A DNA stretch of 64,000 nt from an uncultured Gemmatimonadaceae bacterium. GTDB lineage: Bacteria; Gemmatimonadota; Gemmatimonadetes; Gemmatimonadales; Gemmatimonadaceae. The position numbers were made by a program, and so were the translations under genes. Shown one piece after another: positions 1-38,101 of this stretch (its first letter is position 1; every line of letters begins with the position of its first letter). The stretch is from contig CAWFQK010000004.1 of the NCBI GenBank assembly GCA_963817955.1, forward strand, positions 1,536,001 through 1,600,000, in the 5' to 3' direction. The notes beneath the pieces are model-generated. The model was not told the DNA's origin. It searched no databases and saw only the letters and a program-made list of their open reading frames with translations.

Positions 1-148
1 CGAACGGAAGATCGAGCGTTGCGGTCGAGCAAGCGGGCCTTGAGCCCTGAGCGCGGCGACGCGGCCTTCTGGACCGGCTCGACCATATGGCATCCCATGA
101 CGCATGGACGAACGTTGTCCTGATCCGCTGTCAATCACAGATTCCGTC

Positions 149-1210
149 ATGTCCCGCTATCTTATTTTCTCAGAATCCCAACTTGGAACGCCCGCGGGCA
201 AGACGGGGCATTCCGTTATTCGATATTCCGCCGGCCAGGTCGCAGCGGTGCTCGACAGCACCCGCGCGGGCCAACGGGTCCAGGACGTCCTCGGTTACGG
301 CGGCGACATTCCCGTCGTGGCAACGATCGACGAGGGCGTCGCACTCGGTGTCGACGCACTGCTGGTAGGCGTCGCCATGCACGGTGGCGGGTTCACTCAG
401 GAGGTGCGCACCGCCATCCATGCCGCGATCGACGGTGGTCTCGACATCTGGAACGGCCTGCACGGCTTCGTGAGCGACGATCCCTCGCTGTCTGCACTCG
501 CCCGGATGCGTGGCGTAGAACTGCACGACGTCCGTCGTCCTCCCGACGCGCTGCCGATCGCCACTGGCCGGGTGCGCGAAGTCGATGCGACGGTCCTGCT
601 CGCAGTGGGAAGCGACGCCAACATCGGGAAGATGACCGTGATGCTGCAACTGCACGCGGCGCTCACGGCGCGCGGCAGTCGGTCAGCCTTTGCACCCACA
701 GGACAGACGGGCATCTTCATTCAGGGATGGGGGATCTGTGTCGACGCCGTCGTCGCCGACTTCATTGCCGGCGCGGCGGAATCTGTTACCCTACAGGCGG
801 CACGGAACGCCGACATCGTGCTCGTCGAAGGACAGGGGTCCATCCTACACCCGGGATATTCCGGCGTGTCGCTCGGATTACTGCACGGCAGCCTGCCACA
901 CGGGCTCATCGTCTGTCATCAACCATCGCGGAAGACCTTCCGCCACAATGCCTGGCTCAAGATTCCACCCCTGCGCGACGTGATCGCCCTACACGAAGCC
1001 ATGGCGGGCGCGCTGCGCCCCGCGCCGGCCATCGCTGTTTCCCTGAATACGGTGGATATGTCGGATCGGGATGCGCGGGCGGTGATCGACCGCACAGCCG
1101 ACGAGACTGGATTGCCGACGACCGATCCGGTGCGCTACGACGTGGCGCCGCTCGCGGATGCCGTACTCGCCTTCGACTCCGGTCGCCGTGGGGCGACCGC
1201 CCCTTTATGA
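149..1210 (+). CDS. DUF1611 family protein (DgcN-like D-glutamate N-acetyltransferase)
   Basis: Motifs GSDANIGKMT, TGQTGI, DAVVADF, VEGQGS..HP..SGV; start moved to ATG149 (MSRYLIF). Confidence 0.85.
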   Translation: MSRYLIFSESQLGTPAGKTGHSVIRYSAGQVAAVLDSTRAGQRVQDVLGYGGDIPVVATIDEGVALGVDALLVGVAMHGGGFTQEVRTAIHAAIDGGLDIWNGLHGFVSDDPSLSALARMRGVELHDVRRPPDALPIATGRVREVDATVLLAVGSDANIGKMTVMLQLHAALTARGSRSAFAPTGQTGIFIQGWGICVDAVVADFIAGAAESVTLQAARNADIVLVEGQGSILHPGYSGVSLGLLHGSLPHGLIVCHQPSRKTFRHNAWLKIPPLRDVIALHEAMAGALRPAPAIAVSLNTVDMSDRDARAVIDRTADETGLPTTDPVRYDVAPLADAVLAFDSGRRGATAPL

Positions 1211-1833
1211 GCCATTTCATCCGCATGGCGGCATTCGCCACGGTCCTGCTCGCGCCACTCGCTTGCACGGACGGGCGTGCTCGTGCGCTCCAAGAGATCC
1301 GCGGCGTGCAGCTCTCGCCCGTGCGCGCAAAGCCGGACTTCACACTTCTGGATACGGACGGGAAGCCCTTTCACTTCGTGGCCGACACGCGCGGCACGGC
1401 CACGCTGCTGTACTTCGGCTACACCAACTGCCCTGACGTCTGCCCCACGCACCTCACGAACATCGCGGCCGCCATGAAACGGCTCTCGCCGCAGGACCAG
1501 GCAAAGGTCCGAGTCGTGTTCGTAACGACCGATCCGGCGCGCGACACGCCGACGGTGTTGCGTGGCTGGCTCAACAACTTCGATCCGCGGTTCATTGGCC
1601 TACGCGGCGATATTGCCGACGTGAACCGGATTCAGGCGGCGCTCGGCTTGCCGCCCGCCACCATCGAAGCCCTTCCGGGCACAGCCACCGGCGCCCACGC
1701 CGCCTACGGCGTGGGCCACAGCGCGCAGGTGCTGGGCTTTACTCCAGACGACAGCTTGCGGGTGGAGTACCCAAGCGGGTTCACGCCTGCCGATTGGCAG
1801 AATGACTTGCCGAGATTGCTGCGGGTGAAGTGA
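1207..1833 (+). CDS. SCO1/SenC family copper chaperone lipoprotein
   Basis: FGYTNCPDVCP, VTTDPARDT, conserved His (VGHS); lipobox LAPLAC; ATGA overlap with upstream gene. Confidence 0.9.
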   Translation: MSHFIRMAAFATVLLAPLACTDGRARALQEIRGVQLSPVRAKPDFTLLDTDGKPFHFVADTRGTATLLYFGYTNCPDVCPTHLTNIAAAMKRLSPQDQAKVRVVFVTTDPARDTPTVLRGWLNNFDPRFIGLRGDIADVNRIQAALGLPPATIEALPGTATGAHAAYGVGHSAQVLGFTPDDSLRVEYPSGFTPADWQNDLPRLLRVK

Positions 1834-1839
1834 GGTTGA

Positions 1840-2234
1840 TTAGTACTGCTTTGTCAGTTTTACCGCGAACTGCCGCGCAGTCGGCGGATGATCGAGCGGG
1901 GGCTGGCGCAAGCGATCGGGACGACGGGTGACTGTGATCAGTCATCAGTGCGTGGGTTGTCAGTCATCAGTGACTGAGGACCCCGACAGCCGTCGATCGG
2001 GCGAACAGACCCGCGAACATCCACCACCAAAAAAGACGCGCGGCCGCGAAAGCCGGCCCGAGAGAGAACCCGTCGCGTTGCCGCGCGACTGATGACTGAC
2101 AACCGTTTTACTGATGACTGAAGACAGTCACCCGCTGTCCCGATCGCTTGACCTGGCGTAACGCGCCGGACCCAGCCGCGGTCGTTCGCGCCGTTACCGC
2201 CGCCAGCGCTGAACCTCGGACAGAGCAGTATTAG
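1840..2234. mobile_element. MITE-like non-coding element with terminal and internal inverted repeats
   Basis: TAGTACTGCTTTGTC (1841-1855) vs revcomp of 2219-2233 TAATACTGCTCTGTC (13/15); internal arms 1909-1971 and 2088-2150 match 54/63. Confidence 0.55.
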
Positions 2235-2313
2235 GCCGCGTGCTCGTCCCGGAATACGTCAAGGACTACGTGTCCTTGAACCAGTTTGCGGCGTAGGCGG
2301 CACAGGAGGATTC

Positions 2314-2729
2314 ATGAGCAAGAGCAACAAGACCATGATTGAAGTCCAGGGCACCTCCGTCGCTGTGCTTTCGCAGAATCAGCAAGACATCATATGCCTG
2401 ACGGACATTGCCAAGTTCAAGAACCCGGATCACCCGGACGATGTGATCCGCAACTGGCTGCGCGGCCGCAACACGGTGGAGTTTCTCGGGGTCTGGGAAC
2501 GGCTCAACAACCCGAGTTTTAATCCCGTCGAATTCGACGGGATTAAAATGCAGACGGGTCTGAACAGCTTTGTCCTCACGCCGAAGCAGTGGATCGAGAG
2601 GACCGGAGCGGTGGGCATCACATCAAAGGCCGGTCGCTACGGCGGCACGTACGCCCATAAGGACATCGCCTTCGAGTTCGCCGCCTGGGTCTCGGTAGAG
2701 TTCAAACTCTACCTCATCAAGGAATTCCA
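2314..2729 (+). pseudogene. KilA-N domain DNA-binding protein, 5' half (interrupted)
   Basis: ICLTDIAK, NWLR.RNTVEFLG.WE, GRYGGTYAHKDIAFEF, breaks at LYLIKEF; GGAGG RBS upstream. Confidence 0.9.
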
Positions 2730-4323
2730 TCTCGGGTGACATCTGGGCCGGATCGCGGAGTTCGCGAAACACTTCGGTGCTGATTCACACACGTCACTCG
2801 GCGGGGCGGTGTGCCGAGAGATTCGGATCACTTCGGAGCGACCGGAGCCGGCCTGCGAGTCGTGTGCACCGGCACACCAGCTGGCGGCCCTGATTCCACC
2901 TGGTGCGTGTCCACGGGGGGCATCCTGGAACGGAGGCTCCACGGGAGGATATAGGACGCCAGCAAAATGCTGTCTCGGTGTTGACTGAGTACGTAGAGCC
3001 GTTCCCGGTTGCCTGCTACCCGAAGCGCAGATCGCGGGAGCACCATCGTCTGGAGATACGCTCCACTATCAGAATAGAGATCGACCATACGACCCGCGCC
3101 CGCTGAGCGACCGGAGAACAGGAGAGCAACCCCTCCAGGAAAGCTCGTTGCGTCGAGCGTGTAGACCGACGCTGACCGCGTCAGGCGGTCCCAGAGCCGC
3201 TGATACCAAGAATCAGTTGACACTGGCTCGATGTACGGTCCGAGCGGACGCACCGCGGTATCAGCAACGACCACAACGCTTCGCATGCGCGAGGCCCATA
3301 GGACACACGCGCCGCCCAGCGAGCCGCCGAATCGTAAGTCCTGCCACTTGACGGAGCGGCCGTCCACGTACCCCGCGGGGAACGACAACGAGCGAGTTGC
3401 GAACGGCCGTTTCAGATCATGGATGAAGACAGTGCCCGCCTACGTGTCATCGAGGAATGCGATGCTACCGCTGTCGACTACGCAAGCCGTGCGTACGGTT
3501 CCCCGGTCGCTGAGAGTCGCGATGACCTTGATGTAACCTGAGACGTCTCTACTGACGATGCTGCCCGTTTCAGGCACGAGATACCAAGTGACCCCGCCAC
3601 GGGTAACGCCGGCAATGTCAGAGGGAATGCCGAGCGCTGGATTGACACCGGCGGCCACGATCGGGACACGTCCACCGAGCGCTGACATGTTACTGCCCGA
3701 GAGGGGCTTCTCAAGAATGACCTGAAATGCGGCGGGCGGCGACGCTTGTAGAAGAGCCGTCACACCGCCCCCAGACCGAAACGCGACGACGCTCATGCGT
3801 TGCAGATGTGGGACGAAGCGCTCCACGTAGGGCAGACGGTATTCCCACTCCATGTCCCCGAGTCCGCCGACCCGCAGCGGGCCGGAACCCCCGGTATTTG
3901 CCGTGGAGCGCGAATCATGCGTCGCTGAGCATGCGCCGAGCGCCGCCGCGACCGCGAGGACCCCTAGGATCCTGGTGACCGTGGTTGCTATCGATCTGTC
4001 CTCCGTTCTCGCCGAAGGGCCACATTGGAGGAGGCGTGAACGCCGTTTTGCCGCCTGCGACTCAGAAACGATCAATCTCGCTGTCACGGAACCGTCACCA
4101 TTGAGAAGGCGTCTAAACATGCACGGCTGATTCCAACCCTTGGGGCCGGTCTACAGGCGGCGGCCAAACAGCTCAGTGATTGGGCTACACGCCGTGCGCC
4201 AGGCTTCTGTACGCACGGCATGCACACTGGCCGCAGAGAGCTTGTTAGCCCTGAGGGCTACATATCAGTGCCACGGGGTGAAGCAAATAGTTCCTCCGAT
4301 AGAACAGTTAAACTCGAATTCCA
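2722..4323. mobile_element. 1.6-kb insertion in kilA-N flanked by 8-bp direct repeat GAATTCCA
   Basis: GAATTCCA at 2722-2729 and 4316-4323; removing the insert plus one copy restores the frame; no transposase or TIR seen. Confidence 0.85.
2828..4120 (-). pseudogene. Putative lipoprotein (possibly beta-propeller-like) with one in-frame TAG
   Basis: ORFs 3440-4120 and 2828-3388 are in the same frame, joined by TAG (3440-3442) plus 17 sense codons; lipobox-like LAVAAALGAC. Confidence 0.55.
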
Positions 4324-4741
4324 GCGCCTCAAGGAAGAGGAAAACCGCCACCTGTCGCTCGCCTGGAACCTTAACCGCACCCTTTCCAAGCTCAACTACC
4401 GAATCCACACCGACGCCATTCAGGCGCACCTGATTCCGGCGGCAGTAACGCCGGCACAGGCTGCCCTCACCTACGCCAGCGAGGCCGACCTGCTCAATGT
4501 CGCCCCGTTTGGCCAGACGGCAAAACAGTGGCGCGAGGAGAACCCAAAGCTGGAAGGCAACATGCGCGATTATGCCACGATCGAGCAGCTGTTGGTACTG
4601 GCCAATATCGAGGGCATGAACGCCGAGTTCATCCACATGACACGGCCACAAAGGGAACGTCTCAAGCGCCTCAATGAAATCGCCATCCGCCAGATGCAGG
4701 TGTTGACATCAACGTCTGCGATCAAACAACTCAAAGGATAA
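4316..4741 (+). pseudogene. KilA-N protein, 3' half
   Basis: EFQRLKEEE..WNLNRTLSKLNYRIHTDAI..YASEADLLNVA.FG.TAKQWRE..GNMRDYAT, the typical C-terminal part of this family. Confidence 0.9.
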
Positions 4742-4914
4742 TAGTCTGCTCGCCACCGACACCAAACGCCGCATCGACACCGCCCGCGACATCCATACTT
4801 CGCGATTGCTTCTCTTGTCTCGCTGACTGGGCGCTCGCCATGGCCAGACGGCTCGTATCGGCGGCGCAGACGAGAGTCAAAAGCGAGTGCATCAAACAGC
4901 ATATGAGGGTAGGA

Positions 4915-4948
4915 ACGCGAACGGCCGCCCGAGGGCGGCCGTTCGCGT
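4915..4948. terminator. Strong hairpin between convergent genes
   Basis: ACGCGAACGGCCGCCC-GA-GGGCGGCCGTTCGCGT perfect inverted repeat. Confidence 0.65.
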
Positions 4949-4981
4949 GTACTGCGGGGTGTGACCTACGGGTGCGGCGTG

Positions 4982-5740
4982 TTACACCGCCGGCAACTGC
5001 GATGCCGGAGGTGTGGATGCTGCCGGCGGCGTTGCTGGCGCCGCCATACTGCCCTGCGTGGTGGCGTCCGCTTGTGCCGCGCTCGCGCGAGCGCCGATCT
5101 TGACGCCCGGCTTGTGAGCGACGCGCTTCGCTGTGGTCCATGCCGCCTGCAGGCCGGCATCGGCGCCGATCAACGGCAGCAGCAAGCCGTTGAGCACCGT
5201 GATGATGGTGCGACCACGCCGCTCCTCAGCCGCCAGGGATGCCGTCGCCCCGCTTCGGACCACGGCTTGCCCCGATCGACCATCAATGGCGTCCTGGAGC
5301 CCCTGCGCGGACGCCTGCAACCGCGCGATGAAATCCGCCGGGAGCCCGTTAGCCGTGAACACCGCCGCGTGGCGCGCCGCGGCCTCGCCCATCGCCGCCG
5401 CCGCCGCGAGCAGTCGCTCCGTCGAGACGGTCGAGCGCGGCGTGGTGAGCGAGCTAAAATCGGGAACAGCCGGTAGCCGAAGCTTCGCGATCGCCGCGAT
5501 GGGATCCATCTGGTGGATCCGCAACGCAAGGCGCAGCGCGCCCAGCTTCGACGTCTCCCCTCGGCTCGCGCGGCCACCGACCTCCTGAGCGGTGGCGGAT
5601 GCGCTGAGTTGGGTGATAGTGTCGGTCAGCTCCTGCCGAGCGGCAGAACCCAGGAGCGAGGCGAACGCCGTGGGTTGGGCATCGAGAAAGGTGTCGATGC
5701 GGCGGAGCGCTTCGAGCATACTGCCTTCGTGGTATTTCAT
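4982..5740 (-). CDS. Hypothetical alpha-helical protein (252 aa)
   Basis: ATG5740 (MKYHEGSMLEALRRI) preceded by GGAGG; amphipathic helical composition; Pro/Ala-rich tail. Confidence 0.75.
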   Translation of the reverse strand: MKYHEGSMLEALRRIDTFLDAQPTAFASLLGSAARQELTDTITQLSASATAQEVGGRASRGETSKLGALRLALRIHQMDPIAAIAKLRLPAVPDFSSLTTPRSTVSTERLLAAAAAMGEAAARHAAVFTANGLPADFIARLQASAQGLQDAIDGRSGQAVVRSGATASLAAEERRGRTIITVLNGLLLPLIGADAGLQAAWTTAKRVAHKPGVKIGARASAAQADATTQGSMAAPATPPAASTPPASQLPAV

Positions 5741-5828
5741 GTGGCCTCCCGGCCGATGGGGCGCCGAAATGGACCTGCACCCCGACGGGCGCCCGATGCG
5801 CCGGGGTCGAAAAATGAGAGCAACCGCC

Positions 5829-6835
5829 TCGAGCGGTTGCGGTGTGGTCTTGGGGAGTTGCGCTGTGGTCTTGAGGAGTTGCGATATCGTCTCGGAGAGC
5901 TGGGGTGTCGCCTCAGCAAGTTGCGCTGTCATCTCGGAGAGTCGGGGTGTCGCCTCAGCGAGTTGGGGTGTCGCCTCAGCGAGTTGGAGTGGCGTCTCGG
6001 AGCGTTGGAGTGCCGTCTCGCCGAGTTGGAGTCCCATGTCGACGCGTCAGGGTTCCATCTCAACGCGTTGGGATCCCGTCTCAACGCGTTGGAGTGCCAT
6101 CGCAAGGCGTTCCGATTGCGTCTCGATGAGTTAGGATTCCAGCTCGACGCGCTGGGGTGCCGCCTCTGCGAGTTGGAGTGCCGTCTCGCCGCGCTCAGCT
6201 TGTGCCTTGGCGCGTTGGAGTGCTCTCTCGCCGCACTCCGATTGTGTCTTGGGGAGTTGGAGTGCCGTCTCGATGCGTTGCGATCTCAGCTCGAGGCGCT
6301 CCGATTGCATCTCGGCAGCGGGCACTGCCGTCTCTGCACGGGCGGGTGTCGTCTCGCGGCGATGCGATGCCTGCTCTGCGCGCGAGGATCCTGGCTCAAC
6401 CCGCAGGGATCCTCGCTCGCCACGTTGCGATTCCGTCTACATCCGCAACGATCCTTGCTCGGTCCGTTGGGATTCCGTCTCGGCTCGCAACGATCCTTGC
6501 TCGGCCCGTTGGGATTCCGTCTCGGCTCGCAACGATCCTTGCTCGATCCGTTGCGATCCTATCTGGGCACGCGACGATCCCTGCTTGGCGCGTTGCAATA
6601 CCATCTCGCGGCATTGCGATGCTCGCTCGGCCCGATCGAATTCCATCTCGGCACGATCGAATTCCATCTCGGCACGATCGAATCCCGTCTCGGCCCGATC
6701 GAATTCCATCTCGACACGATCGATCCCGTCTCGGCCCCTTCGCATTCGATCATGCCACGATCGATCCCGTCTCGATCCATTCGCATTCGATGCGTGGCAC
6801 GATCGATCCCGTCTCGCCGCCCGATCGTCCCGCGA
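5829..6835. repeat. Degenerate 21-bp tandem array (~43 in-register units, then decay)
   Basis: Units such as TCAGCGAGTTGGGGTGTCGCC and TCGGCACGATCGAATTCCATC; register unbroken from 5829 to 6711 (42x21). Confidence 0.9.
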
Positions 6836-6957
6836 TGATCGTAGTCCTATATATTAGTTCCGAAATTGGGGGGTCAGCGCAAGGGCCAATATGACCGATT
6901 GACCAATACCGCCATGTTTTGAGCGTTTCAGCGTTAGTACTATTAGAGCGGTACGTC

Positions 6958-7000
6958 GGTCCCGTGTCCGGTGTCCCGTGTCCCGTGTCCCGTGTCCCGT
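6958..7000. repeat. Heptamer array (GTGTCCC)n
   Basis: About 5-6 units, same unit as the arrays attached to the dispersed repeat. Confidence 0.9.
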
Positions 7001-7281
7001 GGTACCGGACGAGTCACGAGCTGGCCTGCGCGTGCGTGGAGCGGCCGGCCACGAGATCGCGGCGACCGGCAACACCGATCCGCGGAAGAGCGTCACCGAT
7101 CTGACGCTCCTGTTGAGTGGCATCGATCCGCCGCCGTCGCGCGTGCGCCGCTGGTGGCGGCCCGTCGAGGGACCCGGCGCCAAGACACTCTAGAACTTGC
7201 TCATAATCGCCCAGCGTCGTAGGTTGCGGCGCGATGGCGCTTGCGGAAGGACCGCCCTGGAACGACAACCGGGTTGACGAG

Positions 7282-8099
7282 ATGACTCAGTCACAGTTGA
7301 CAACTCGACGGACGCCTGCCGGCCGATACTCGCTCATCACGCTGATCTTGCTGGCGGGCATACTGACCCGTCCCGAGGTGGCACGGGCTCAAGGTACGTC
7401 AGGCGCCCCCGCACCGCCGACGAAGGCGAGCGTGTTGGCAGGTCGCGTGCGGGATCAGTTAGGTCACCCGATAGGACTCGCTGCAGTGAGTGCAGAACAG
7501 GGCGCGAGTGCCGTGTCCGGCGATTCGGGCATTTTCAGGTTGGTGGGCCTATTGCCCGGGCAGGCGGAAATCACCGTAGCGCGGATCGGCTACGCGCCTG
7601 TCAGGTTTGCCGTGACCATGCCAGCCGACTCGACGGTATTCGTTGAGGTACATATGGAATCGGTCACCTCCTTGGCTGCTGTCGAAATTAGCGGCCGCCC
7701 CGCCAACTCCATGCTTACAGGCCAAGGGTTTTACGAACGCAAGCGGTTGGACTCGGCATGTTCCTAGATCCCGACCAAATCGCGGCACGGCCGTTTTCCT
7801 ACGTTTCGCAGCAGCTTATGGATGTGCCGAGCGCTTCGATCAAAAAAAAGAACATGGGCATAGGCTACTCGGTATTGTTTTTCTCGCACGCTACCGGAGG
7901 CTTTTGCGCACCTACCGTATTCGTCGACGGCGTATACCTAACAATCCCCATTGACGAGTTCCTAAGCGGATCCGAGGTCTACGCAATTGAAGTCTACCCC
8001 CACGCAACACAGGTTCCCCTCAAGTTTCAGCCGCCGATGCAGGACGTCCCCTGTGGGGCAATCGCCATCTGGACAAAGTCAGGGATGCATACGAAATAA
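7282..8099 (+). pseudogene. Carboxypeptidase-regulatory-like domain / plug-like secreted protein, frameshifted
   Basis: Signal peptide, GRVRDQLGHPI..G.FRL.GL.PG..RIGYAP, GFYERKRL then frame change; one extra G near 7750 gives KRLGLGMFLDP..C.PTVFVDG..AIEVY..CGAIAIWTK. Confidence 0.75.
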
Positions 8100-8152
8100 C
8101 CGACGCTGTCGCGGGTGTAATGCCTCAGCTGGAACTGGAGTGTTCGTCCACC

Positions 8153-8638
8153 ATGAAAGTTATCGCGTTCGTTTCAGCAACCGTCTGCACACTTGCCCTT
8201 TCGCTTCATGCGCAGCAACCGAGCGAGCTGCAGGCTGTTGAGCGTGCCATGGTATCGTACGCTGGAGCTCATCTAGCCACCACCGAGGTCATCGTCTTCG
8301 ACGGAGTTCCTACGAGTGCGAAGCAAGCCACCCGGCCGCCAGCGCACGTAGCTTCACTCGCCAGCGCGTTGCACGCGCAACGGATCGGCCGTACGGACGA
8401 CTTCTATAAATGCGCGTCGAGCAAGCCGTCGACCTGCTCCATTAGTGGCGCCGATGCAATCATTTCGCTCAGCGAACCTACGATACAAGGCGATACGGCC
8501 TTGATCACCGTTCGAGTCTTGCGTGCAACACGCAGCCAGCGCGCGCCCGTCGCGCGAAGCGAGGATCGCTATCGTCTCGTGCGGCATGGCGATGGTTCGT
8601 GGACTGTTGACGGGTGGGTTGCTGGGAGTATCACCTAG
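8153..8638 (+). CDS. Hypothetical secreted protein
   Basis: MKVIAFVSATVCTLALSLHA signal peptide; GGAG upstream. Confidence 0.7.
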   Translation: MKVIAFVSATVCTLALSLHAQQPSELQAVERAMVSYAGAHLATTEVIVFDGVPTSAKQATRPPAHVASLASALHAQRIGRTDDFYKCASSKPSTCSISGADAIISLSEPTIQGDTALITVRVLRATRSQRAPVARSEDRYRLVRHGDGSWTVDGWVAGSIT

Positions 8639-8704
8639 GGTGACGCCCTGCCCAGCTTCGTGCTGGCCATGCGGCGATTGGCGCGCTTCCTGGGCGCGTT
8701 GATA

Positions 8705-9712
8705 TCACCCCAACAACGCAAGCAACGCGAACGTTGCAAGCCAATGCTCCCCGGCATACTCGCCCGCCACGTGCGGCAGGCTCGCCGCGAGGTGCGCGTC
8801 GGCCGTAGACAGCGCACGAATGCGTCGCGGGTCTGCCTCCTCCCAACTCGAGGCAATTGATCGCCAACACCACGCGCGGCTGAGATTCAGGCCGTCGAGG
8901 TGCGCGATCTTGCCATCGCTGCGATCGCTGACCGTTACTGGAGTGAACAGCGTAGCCGGCTCCTGCTTCCCGAGTCGCGGCAGAAACCGATCCATCCACG
9001 CTCGCCATTCTGCCGCCCCCAAGACTCGCCTCATGCACTCCGCTTCGATCAAGGCTGACGACAGAAAATCGTCACCACCTGGCTCCCAGGCCTGACAGTC
9101 GGCGTCGGTGCCGTACCAGGCACGTGCCTTGTCGCGCAGCATTCCCCAGAGTGCATCGTCCCTGGCCACCTCGGCATACTCCAGCGCCAGTGTCAGGGCG
9201 AACGCCGTGTTGAAGTGTGTTCCGACGCGGATGGGATAGGTGGCTTTGGGAAGCCAGGCGCGGAAGCGATTCGCGAAGACCACCGCCAGGGGCCGCAGTG
9301 TCTCTGACCATCGGCGGCCCTCGTCGTTGTCCCACCGCGCCAGTTCGGCGCTCAGCATCAGGAGCCATGCCCAGCCATACGGTCGCTCGAATCCGCCACG
9401 CGATGGCTGCTCGAGATAGGCGATTTCGCCGGCGATGTTGCGTGCCGTGAGTTGCGTGTCGAACAGCTCGCGGATTTGCGTGCGCTGAACCTGGGGCAGG
9501 TCACGCACACCGCGATGGATCGTCGCCAGCATCCAGTATGCGTGGACGTTCGAGTGCCAGTCGAAGCTCCCATAGAACACCGGGTGCAACTCGTGCGGCG
9601 CGCGGAGATCGTCCGGCCCATTGAGCACGTGATCGAGCTTGTTCGGGTACTCCCGCCGAGCGTGGTCGAGCGCCAATGCGGCGAACCGGCTCGCGGTCGT
9701 CTGGTCAATCAC
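8705..9712 (-). CDS. DUF2891 family protein
   Basis: REYPNK, HPVFYGSFDWHS, FERPYGWAW, DGKIAHLDGLNLSRAW, YAGEHWLATFA. Confidence 0.9.
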   Translation of the reverse strand: MIDQTTASRFAALALDHARREYPNKLDHVLNGPDDLRAPHELHPVFYGSFDWHSNVHAYWMLATIHRGVRDLPQVQRTQIRELFDTQLTARNIAGEIAYLEQPSRGGFERPYGWAWLLMLSAELARWDNDEGRRWSETLRPLAVVFANRFRAWLPKATYPIRVGTHFNTAFALTLALEYAEVARDDALWGMLRDKARAWYGTDADCQAWEPGGDDFLSSALIEAECMRRVLGAAEWRAWMDRFLPRLGKQEPATLFTPVTVSDRSDGKIAHLDGLNLSRAWCWRSIASSWEEADPRRIRALSTADAHLAASLPHVAGEYAGEHWLATFALLALLG

Positions 9713-37885: not shown

Positions 37886-38101
37886 ACACGTCCGCGGCGA
37901 CGCACGTCAAGAAAGTCGACAATACCACGGCATTGATCTGGAAACCCTGTCTCGTCGTCGAACAACATTTCCGCAAACTGAACGCCTCGCACTTCTGTAT
38001 CGACGGGTACAATGGCGTCTTGTTTCACGACGGTCTGTGCACGGTGAACCCGACCCGAGAACGGATCGCCCTCTGACGCCGGGTACTCTGGACAAGATCT
38101 C
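37886..38101 (+). mobile_element. IS256-family remnant (transposase C-terminus plus right-end-like sequence)
   Basis: TSAA...KKVDN.TALIWK..LVVEQHFRKLNA..Y.G..F.DG stop 38076, then GACAAGATCTC. Confidence 0.65.

Follow-up and report, generated by a model that had tools for sequence, protein, structure and literature searches.

A KilA-N gene in a decayed restriction-modification operon of a Gemmatimonadaceae bacterium, split by a lipoprotein-type gene unit between 8-bp direct repeats

What kind of event cuts a gene in two with a segment that is bounded by an exact 8-bp duplication and that carries neither a recombinase, a transposase nor inverted ends? The question is raised by a KilA-N gene in a 64,000-nucleotide stretch of the genome of an uncultured Gemmatimonadaceae bacterium (assembly GCA_963817955.1, contig CAWFQK010000004.1, positions 1,536,001 to 1,600,000), the whole of which is referred to here as the window. 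A reading of this DNA without database searches (the sequence-only reading) had offered three explanations, namely a minimal element mobilised in trans, an eroded integrative element using kilA-N as its attB site, and an excision switch. The present analysis points to a different one. What took place was probably one insertion, not programmed, that duplicated 8 bp of its target in a decaying remnant of a defence operon, and the locus is best read as genomic debris in which both KilA-N and the gene carried by the insert (the cargo gene) are dead, rather than as a working switch or a new mobile element.

The anatomy of the split can be read directly from the coordinates (Table 1). The two copies of GAATTCCA lie 1594 bp apart, start to start, and removal of these 1594 bp joins 2314-2721 (136 codons) to 4316-4738 (141 codons) in one frame of 277 codons; as it stands, the 5' open reading frame (2314..2739) continues to a stop at 2737-2739. 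The N-terminal piece contains the Pfam domain KilA-N (PF04383, residues 12-139, E 4.5e-19). Both pieces match the PADLOC profile PDC-S22 (281 positions) colinearly, the N-terminal piece at 3-137 and the C-terminal piece at 135-274, their sole overlap being the duplicated EF. A protein database search with the 3' part returned 7999 matches at E <= 0.001, the best 120 of which are 260-278 amino acids (aa) long and 85-91% identical to it. Across the junction, six intact homologues (276-278 aa) read ...LYLIK-EFQRLKEDE... and align without gaps to both pieces. The split, the flanking repeats and the in-frame restoration described in the sequence-only reading are thus borne out, and the palindrome GGAATTCC that it had placed at the target is indeed present, at 2721-2728.

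For the interruption survey and the palindrome counts, 80 related genome loci were examined, as against 7999 matched proteins. In these loci GAATTCCA is the commonest spelling of the split codon site (37 of 77 pattern matches, five loci being without a match), which argues that one copy in the window is ancestral and the other a real duplication. The chance of eight bases matching is about 1.5e-5.

The split gene stands in what remains of an operon. The hsdR-like tail upstream matches the C-termini (LIPEYIKDYVSLNQFAA followed by the stop) of 846-aa proteins, carrying ResIII and HSDR_N, that lie upstream in the relatives L024 and L033. The hsdM-hsdS head downstream matches the N-terminus (MLDTDTKRRIDTARDILVGK...) of an 835-aa N6_Mtase and Methylase_S fusion in the same two loci; its start codon reads CTG and homology stops at 4794. 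Both breakpoints of the relic are set by contigs of relatives from sequencing run X6, whose likeness to the window is lost before 2236/2237 and after 4794. The left break is marked by a dispersed repeat, A, resembling a miniature inverted-repeat transposable element (MITE), which ends 3 bp short of where hsdR homology begins. Repeat A has 15-bp terminal inverted repeats (TAGTACTGCTTTGTC; arms 1841-1855 and 2219-2233, 87% complementary) and an internal inverted repeat of 63 nt. More than ten full or partial copies are present in the genome, three of them with both ends; copies lie, for example, at C4:689668-690075 and C4:658343-658646. No close hsdR or hsdM-S is found elsewhere in the genome, where the best matches are 24-31% identical, and there is no second KilA-N gene. 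The guanine-plus-cytosine (GC) content of the relic is 0.574 against 0.640 for the genome, and only 0.7% of genome windows of the same length are as low; the nearest KilA-N proteins, where named, come from Betaproteobacteria, Acidithiobacillus and Acidiferrobacter. Foreign by both measures, the relic is likely to be the remnant of a horizontally acquired type I restriction-modification (R-M) operon.

The company kept by related genes is of the same kind. Genes downstream of 71 of the 80 relatives include 18 R-M subunits (10 Methylase_S, 3 N6_Mtase, 1 N6_N4_Mtase, 1 Eco57I and 3 HSDR_N/ResIII), and other defence-island families (GmrSD, YhcG, RhuM, Bro-N, a Cas protein, PIN and HNH) lie downstream in 10 of the 71, so that the KilA-N family appears to be a passenger of defence loci. 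Contigs of run X6 from other soil organisms, aligned to window 2286-4747, join the end of hsdR to the start of hsdM-S with only 8-21 letters between them and no KilA-N, from which KilA-N would be an optional insert between the two R-M genes. PDC-S22 comprises 277-aa KilA-N proteins in R-M and other defence loci, and the window gene shares with it the full profile match, the KilA-N domain and the hsdR/hsdM-S flanks; unlike PDC-S22 it is split, has invariant residues mutated and has lost its operon. By its domain, its colinear profile match and the coding palindrome described below, the gene is assigned to PDC-S22, while its split, its mutated invariant residues and its lost operon make it a pseudogene. 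A literature search on PDC-S22 found one paper, which reports co-occurrence only, and a search for papers combining KilA-N and type I restriction found only unrelated ones. Nested genes inside defence systems are described in the abstract of bioRxiv 10.1101/2024.01.29.577857; KilA is absent from the main text of that article.

Extra, diverged partial KilA-N fragments (35-55% identity) stand beside the intact gene in 6 of the 80 related loci (L036 4001-4129, L038 3930-4142, L058 4001-4228, L090 4001-4213, L039 6239-6364 and L092 5018-5143). In four of the six, the fragment is an N-terminal piece just upstream of the intact gene.

Substitutions have accumulated in the window gene as well. Of 159 columns with at least 95% conservation in the 120 homologues, it deviates at 4, two of which are invariant: the motif NRRLSL shows R>H, and NVALFG shows L>P. 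The homologues have 1.03 deviations on average and 6 of the 120 reach at least four, a comparison in which their selection by likeness to the C-terminal part may flatter them. The hint of decay that the sequence-only reading had taken from NVAPFG was well founded, leucine being present at this position in all 120 homologues listed.

The insert carries a single gene, antisense to KilA-N, with 195 bp of insert upstream of it and 98 bp downstream. The antisense lipoprotein-like frame reported earlier is present, but it is really a single gene of 430 codons with one in-frame TAG. The N-terminus has a lipoprotein-type signal (...LAVAAALGAC), and the gene is colinear over its full length with six hypothetical proteins of 358-418 aa (P0121, P0122, P0124, P0125, P0127 and P0129). 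These six are among nine relatives of at least 327 aa (343-418 aa, 56-63% identity) that a protein database search found, with no close copy. The only other match to the insert in the genome is the coding part of a paralogue (72% identical), which lies at C2:713344-714165, is colinear with the cargo gene and has 58.5% protein identity to it. A search of 30 further genomes of the genus did not detect the family; it is matched, mostly weakly, in 26 of 401 genomes of the phylum, including this one, and relatives occur at two metagenome loci (55% and 40% identity). No donor locus for the cargo gene was found in protein database, genus and metagenome searches.

A structure model of the relative P0125, built from a nine-row alignment (mean predicted local distance difference test score, pLDDT, 66.5; predicted template-modelling score, pTM, 0.68), resembles six-bladed NHL-type beta-propellers (Pizza6, Brat-NHL and TRIM2-NHL) with target-normalised template-modelling (TM) scores of 0.60-0.65. 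A language-model lead agrees, also indicating a six-bladed beta-propeller. The cargo would therefore be a lineage-specific lipoprotein, a relative of which is predicted to fold as a six-bladed NHL-like beta-propeller. Neither of two insert frames has a Pfam match, and NCBIfam has no family for the cargo proteins or for those of the neighbouring B family. Rfam gave nothing at E <= 0.1 on window 1-9000, and a promoter and terminator scan of 2200-5000 gave nothing over shuffle expectation. The GC content of the insert is ordinary, 17.7% of genome windows of the same length being as low; this, together with the distribution of the family, including the paralogue, suggests that the insert is lineage-native DNA.

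Table 1. Coordinates of the features at and around the split KilA-N gene, in window positions
Feature	Position	Strand	Description or basis
MITE-like dispersed repeat A (393 bp)	1841..2233		Inverted-repeat scan, genome copies
hsdR-like gene tail	2240..2296	+	Last ~18 codons, VLVPEYVKDYVSLNQFAA, and stop; likeness to relatives L024, L033
KilA-N / PDC-S22 gene, 5' part	2314..2729	+	136 codons and first copy of the duplicated EF-Q site
Perfect 32-bp palindrome	2517..2548		Centred on GAATTC, codes FNPVEFDGIK; inverted-repeat scan, 16-nt arms, no spacer, 100%
Direct repeat, copy 1	2722..2729		GAATTCCA; sequence
Insert, single-copy	2730..4315		1586 bp, GC 0.620, no inverted ends
Lipoprotein-type cargo gene	2828..4120	-	430 codons, in-frame TAG at 3440-3442; translation, homologue alignment
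Direct repeat, copy 2	4316..4323		GAATTCCA; sequence
KilA-N / PDC-S22 gene, 3' part	4316..4741	+	141 codons and stop
Fused hsdM-hsdS head	4746..4794	+	First ~16 codons, LLATDTKRRIDTARDI; likeness to L024/L033
B-family gene	4902..6975	-	Terminator hairpin, tandem repeats

Neither the ends of the insert nor its distribution are those of a known mobile element. That it has no recombinase, transposase or terminal inverted repeat, as the sequence-only reading had stated, is confirmed by the lack of a Pfam match and of inverted ends, since the best local alignment of one end with the other comprises no more than the GAATTC site (score 12; shuffles average 13.1). Among the 25 longest inverted-repeat pairs listed there is none near either insert end, a list that bears only in part on the attC-type imperfect palindrome expected at the 3' end of an integron gene cassette, and none of the subterminal hairpins of the IS200/IS605 kind; an element of that type is also at odds with the 8-bp duplication. 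The terminal 100-200 nt, for which copies had been thought worth seeking, match the genome only in chance 14-15-mers, and the left-junction 34-mer has no match in metagenome contigs.

None of the 80 related loci is split at the KilA-N codon of the window insertion. Eight of them are irregular, through one contig-end truncation, one frameshift and the six extra KilA-N fragments beside an intact gene. Same-strand pairs of GAATTCCA 300-8000 bp apart number 37 in the genome, and only the pair in the window splits a gene; among the other 36, four with long joined frames fuse unrelated Pfam families. The insertion is unique within what was surveyed. The insert lacks proper element ends and encodes no enzyme that could move it; with neither a second copy nor another insertion at the site, a single unprogrammed event is suggested.

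The genome does contain an insertion sequence (IS) of the IS256 family, 1381 bp in length, two copies of which (C4:729759-731139 and C2:901242-902620) are 96.5% identical and have 8-bp duplications, CCGCTTCC and CGAAGGAG. A third copy (C4:1379306-1383270) is split by a 2582-bp IS21-like element with IstA/IstB-type frames, and the 99.96% identity of the latter to a twin at C1:550646-553227 suggests that it has recently been active. A 194-bp fragment of the IS256-family element lies at window 37887-38080.

From these observations we infer the following order of events. A type I R-M operon consisting of hsdR, KilA-N/PDC-S22 and a fused hsdM-S would have been acquired horizontally. Deletions would then have stripped nearly all of hsdR and hsdM-S, leaving about 970 bp whose left break adjoins the MITE-like repeat. 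At codons 137-138 (E-F), the KilA-N frame would have been interrupted a single time, the intruder being 1586 bp of lineage-native DNA made up of one complete gene unit for a putative beta-propeller lipoprotein, antisense to KilA-N, with 8 bp of the target (GAATTCCA) doubled. An 8-bp staggered cut may have been filled around a captured segment, as a trans-acting transposase would give, or a small circle may have integrated in Campbell style via 8 bp of microhomology. Later drift would have affected both genes, giving the TAG in the cargo and R>H and L>P in KilA-N.

Several points weigh against this history. Exact duplications of 8 bp are what a staggered cut made by an enzyme, or a recombination core, typically leaves behind, and the tidy single-gene unit looks cassette-like. 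Erosion of the ends cannot explain the missing inverted repeats, since the perfect (8/8) repeats and the near-intact cargo suggest that little time has passed. The searches having found no donor locus, the case for captured native DNA is made from composition and family distribution, and the argument from composition is weakened by the GC content at third codon positions, which is higher in KilA-N (0.773) than in the cargo gene (0.68). The reads add little. Six runs, none of them listed as RNA, contain small shares of the window (at most 0.14). Contigs of four were aligned to it, and three of these runs, from one study (X1-X3), give a few near-identical contigs of 151-206 nt within the insert at about 2-4x depth. 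The aligned contigs bridge neither 2729/2730 nor 4315/4316 and do not cover the TAG, and among the joins listed there is none from 2729 to 4316; one 151-nt contig begins exactly at 2722.

The start of that contig at 2722, and the lack of any independent read or contig across either junction, might indicate that the insert was mis-joined into kilA-N during assembly, in a genome that is 94% complete with 4.3% contamination. Assemblers, however, do not join at 8-bp repeats, the halves of the gene are in frame and in order around an exact duplication, and the assembly has only nine contigs, which makes an artefact very improbable. A cassette moved in trans is favoured by the exact duplication. Mobile insertion cassettes and MITEs consist of passenger DNA between IS-type inverted repeats and are mobilised by an enzyme encoded elsewhere; the unit studied here resembles them in lacking its own transposase, in carrying one passenger gene and in its 8-bp duplication, and differs in having no inverted repeats and a single copy. 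An IS256-family enzyme would be the candidate, since the copies in this genome make 8-bp duplications, and the 10-mer with which the insert begins (TCTCGGGTGA) is found in the IS too, 47-56 nt in from its left end. That shared 10-mer is nevertheless at chance level (120 of 200 shuffles are as high), the ends of the insert are otherwise unlike IS256-family ends, and no second case is seen in the genome or in the 80 related loci. A non-autonomous single-gene cassette of this type is therefore unlikely, and the earlier proposal of a minimal element mobilised in trans finds no footing in a single-copy insert with no close database copy and no metagenome match to its junction. Integration of an integrase-less remnant by recombination at GAATTCCA as an 8-bp core is less probable still. 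Cis-mobilisable elements (CIMEs) and Xer-dependent modules are integrase-less units flanked by recombination sites, and the identical short repeats here, without a recombinase, could correspond to attL and attR; the site contains the palindrome GGAATTCC, and since most relatives with a different spelling are outnumbered by none as frequent as GAATTCCA at this conserved codon site, targets would be widely available. The repeat measures no more than 8 bp, however, there are no inverted recombinase-binding arms at the repeats or at the inferred circle junction, and the seven tyrosine-recombinase (PF00589) genes of the genome are all distant (the nearest at C4:1373927 and C4:1709316-1711788). The unit is one ordinary gene, and the suggestion that kilA-N serves as attB, with other cargo at the same codon elsewhere, finds no support in the 80 unoccupied relatives or in the 36 other GAATTCCA pairs, none of which splits a gene.

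The remaining explanations start from the repeats themselves. Both contain GAATTC, and EcoRI-promoted recombination in vivo has been described, so a GAATTC-bounded fragment might have been joined by restriction and ligation at the GAATTC of kilA-N, the extra 'CA' matching by chance (1 in 16). This is highly unlikely to have happened: no donor fragment is known, and the genome shows no avoidance of GAATTC (observed/expected 0.99; 42nd among the 64 six-base palindromes), which leaves such an origin without support. Precise excision between the 8-bp repeats would restore the full 277-codon frame, and there is a parallel in staphylococci, where IS256 insertion and repeat-mediated precise excision switch the ica genes. 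The split gene resembles IS256 phase variation in its 8-bp duplication and in-frame restoration on precise loss. It differs in that no IS makes up the insert and that excision would give back an orphan gene with mutations. Repeats of 8 bp that are 1.6 kb apart would very rarely undergo slippage, no enzyme or recognisable sites are present, and the loss of the operon partners, the changes at 4 of 159 conserved positions, two of them at invariant residues, and the stop codon in the cargo gene speak against the switch proposed in the sequence-only reading; a reversible switch restoring a working KilA-N is hardly credible. We know of no catalogued bacterial transposition or integration route that explains how a segment as long as a gene, lacking element ends, comes to be flanked by a clean 8-bp duplication. 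There is a slim chance that the insert is a recombinase-less single-gene cassette served by a trans-acting enzyme that needs no terminal repeats and that makes an 8-bp staggered cut or uses an 8-bp core containing GGAATTCC. If this were true, it would be an undescribed gene-sized mobile unit, caught in a conserved and widely travelling defence gene.

A single unprogrammed insertion into a decaying operon remnant would make the locus a well-documented case of defence-island decay, in which a 1-kb stub is all that is left of an R-M operon and of the candidate defence gene nested in it, the stub having later taken an insertion. Its main value is as a caution that a split that can be restored in frame does not imply a switch.

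Biologically more interesting than the split is a palindrome within the KilA-N coding sequence that is kept by compensatory codon changes. The corresponding codons were located in the 80 loci by protein alignment, with no sequence-based selection, and the central GAATTC is present in all 80. Over 30 nt, symmetry is complete (30/30) in 25 loci, and is 28 in 27, 26 in 17, 24 in 9 and 22 in 2. The changes are compensatory and include amino-acid pairs, N..I exchanging with K..F, V..D with L..E, and P..G with Q..L or G..T. In the 14-pair stem, 94.9% of cells are paired and 116 changes are double-sided, where shuffles give 83.6% and 37. Covariation scores 0.306, compared with 0.108 in shuffles, none of 500 of which reaches it, although the shuffle control overstates the effect as the sequences are related; slid registers, a control that does not overstate it, give at most 0.10. 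As judged from sequence covariation, the palindrome appears to be a signal at the nucleic-acid level, conserved across a KilA-N family that is spread over many phyla. No link is seen between it and the insertion 175 bp downstream.

A literature search found no paper with both KilA-N and a palindrome, and Rfam has no match. The nearest published parallel is offered by the BstA abortive-infection proteins, whose own locus carries a DNA-based element, aba; it comprises 63 bp at the start of the gene, is bounded by direct CCCGCC repeats and differs in specificity from one BstA variant to the next (PMC8585504). On that description, both cases would have a KilA-N-type defence protein with a short DNA-level signal overlapping its own coding sequence. 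The signal in the window differs in that it occupies codons 69-78 and is a palindrome of 30-32 bp whose GAATTC centre is invariant, as known here from sequence.

Beyond the relic lies a gene of a family, termed B, that has about 20 paralogues in the genome (for example C4:244188-246318 and C2:997247-999377) and no Pfam match. The family has a globular part of about 250 aa, a long array of 21-bp tandem repeats in which both strands have several open frames, and a conserved terminator hairpin with a 16-bp stem, which lies at 4915-4948 in the window. A 14-mer across the left junction of the insert, GAATTCCATCTCGG, recurs in these tandem repeats (6638 and 6659); with an E of 1.4 and no extension, the match is at chance level and was set aside. 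In C2, a diverged member of the B family (68% nucleotide identity) stands roughly 2 kb from the cargo paralogue in the same relative orientation as in the window (C2:713344-717033 and window 2828-5824). This pairing could reflect an old segmental duplication or chance. No B-like gene is found near the cargo homologue in four other genomes or in L110, and its absence from these five speaks against a conserved lipoprotein-B gene pair. Copies of repeat A adjoin the terminator of a B-family gene in both C2 and C5.

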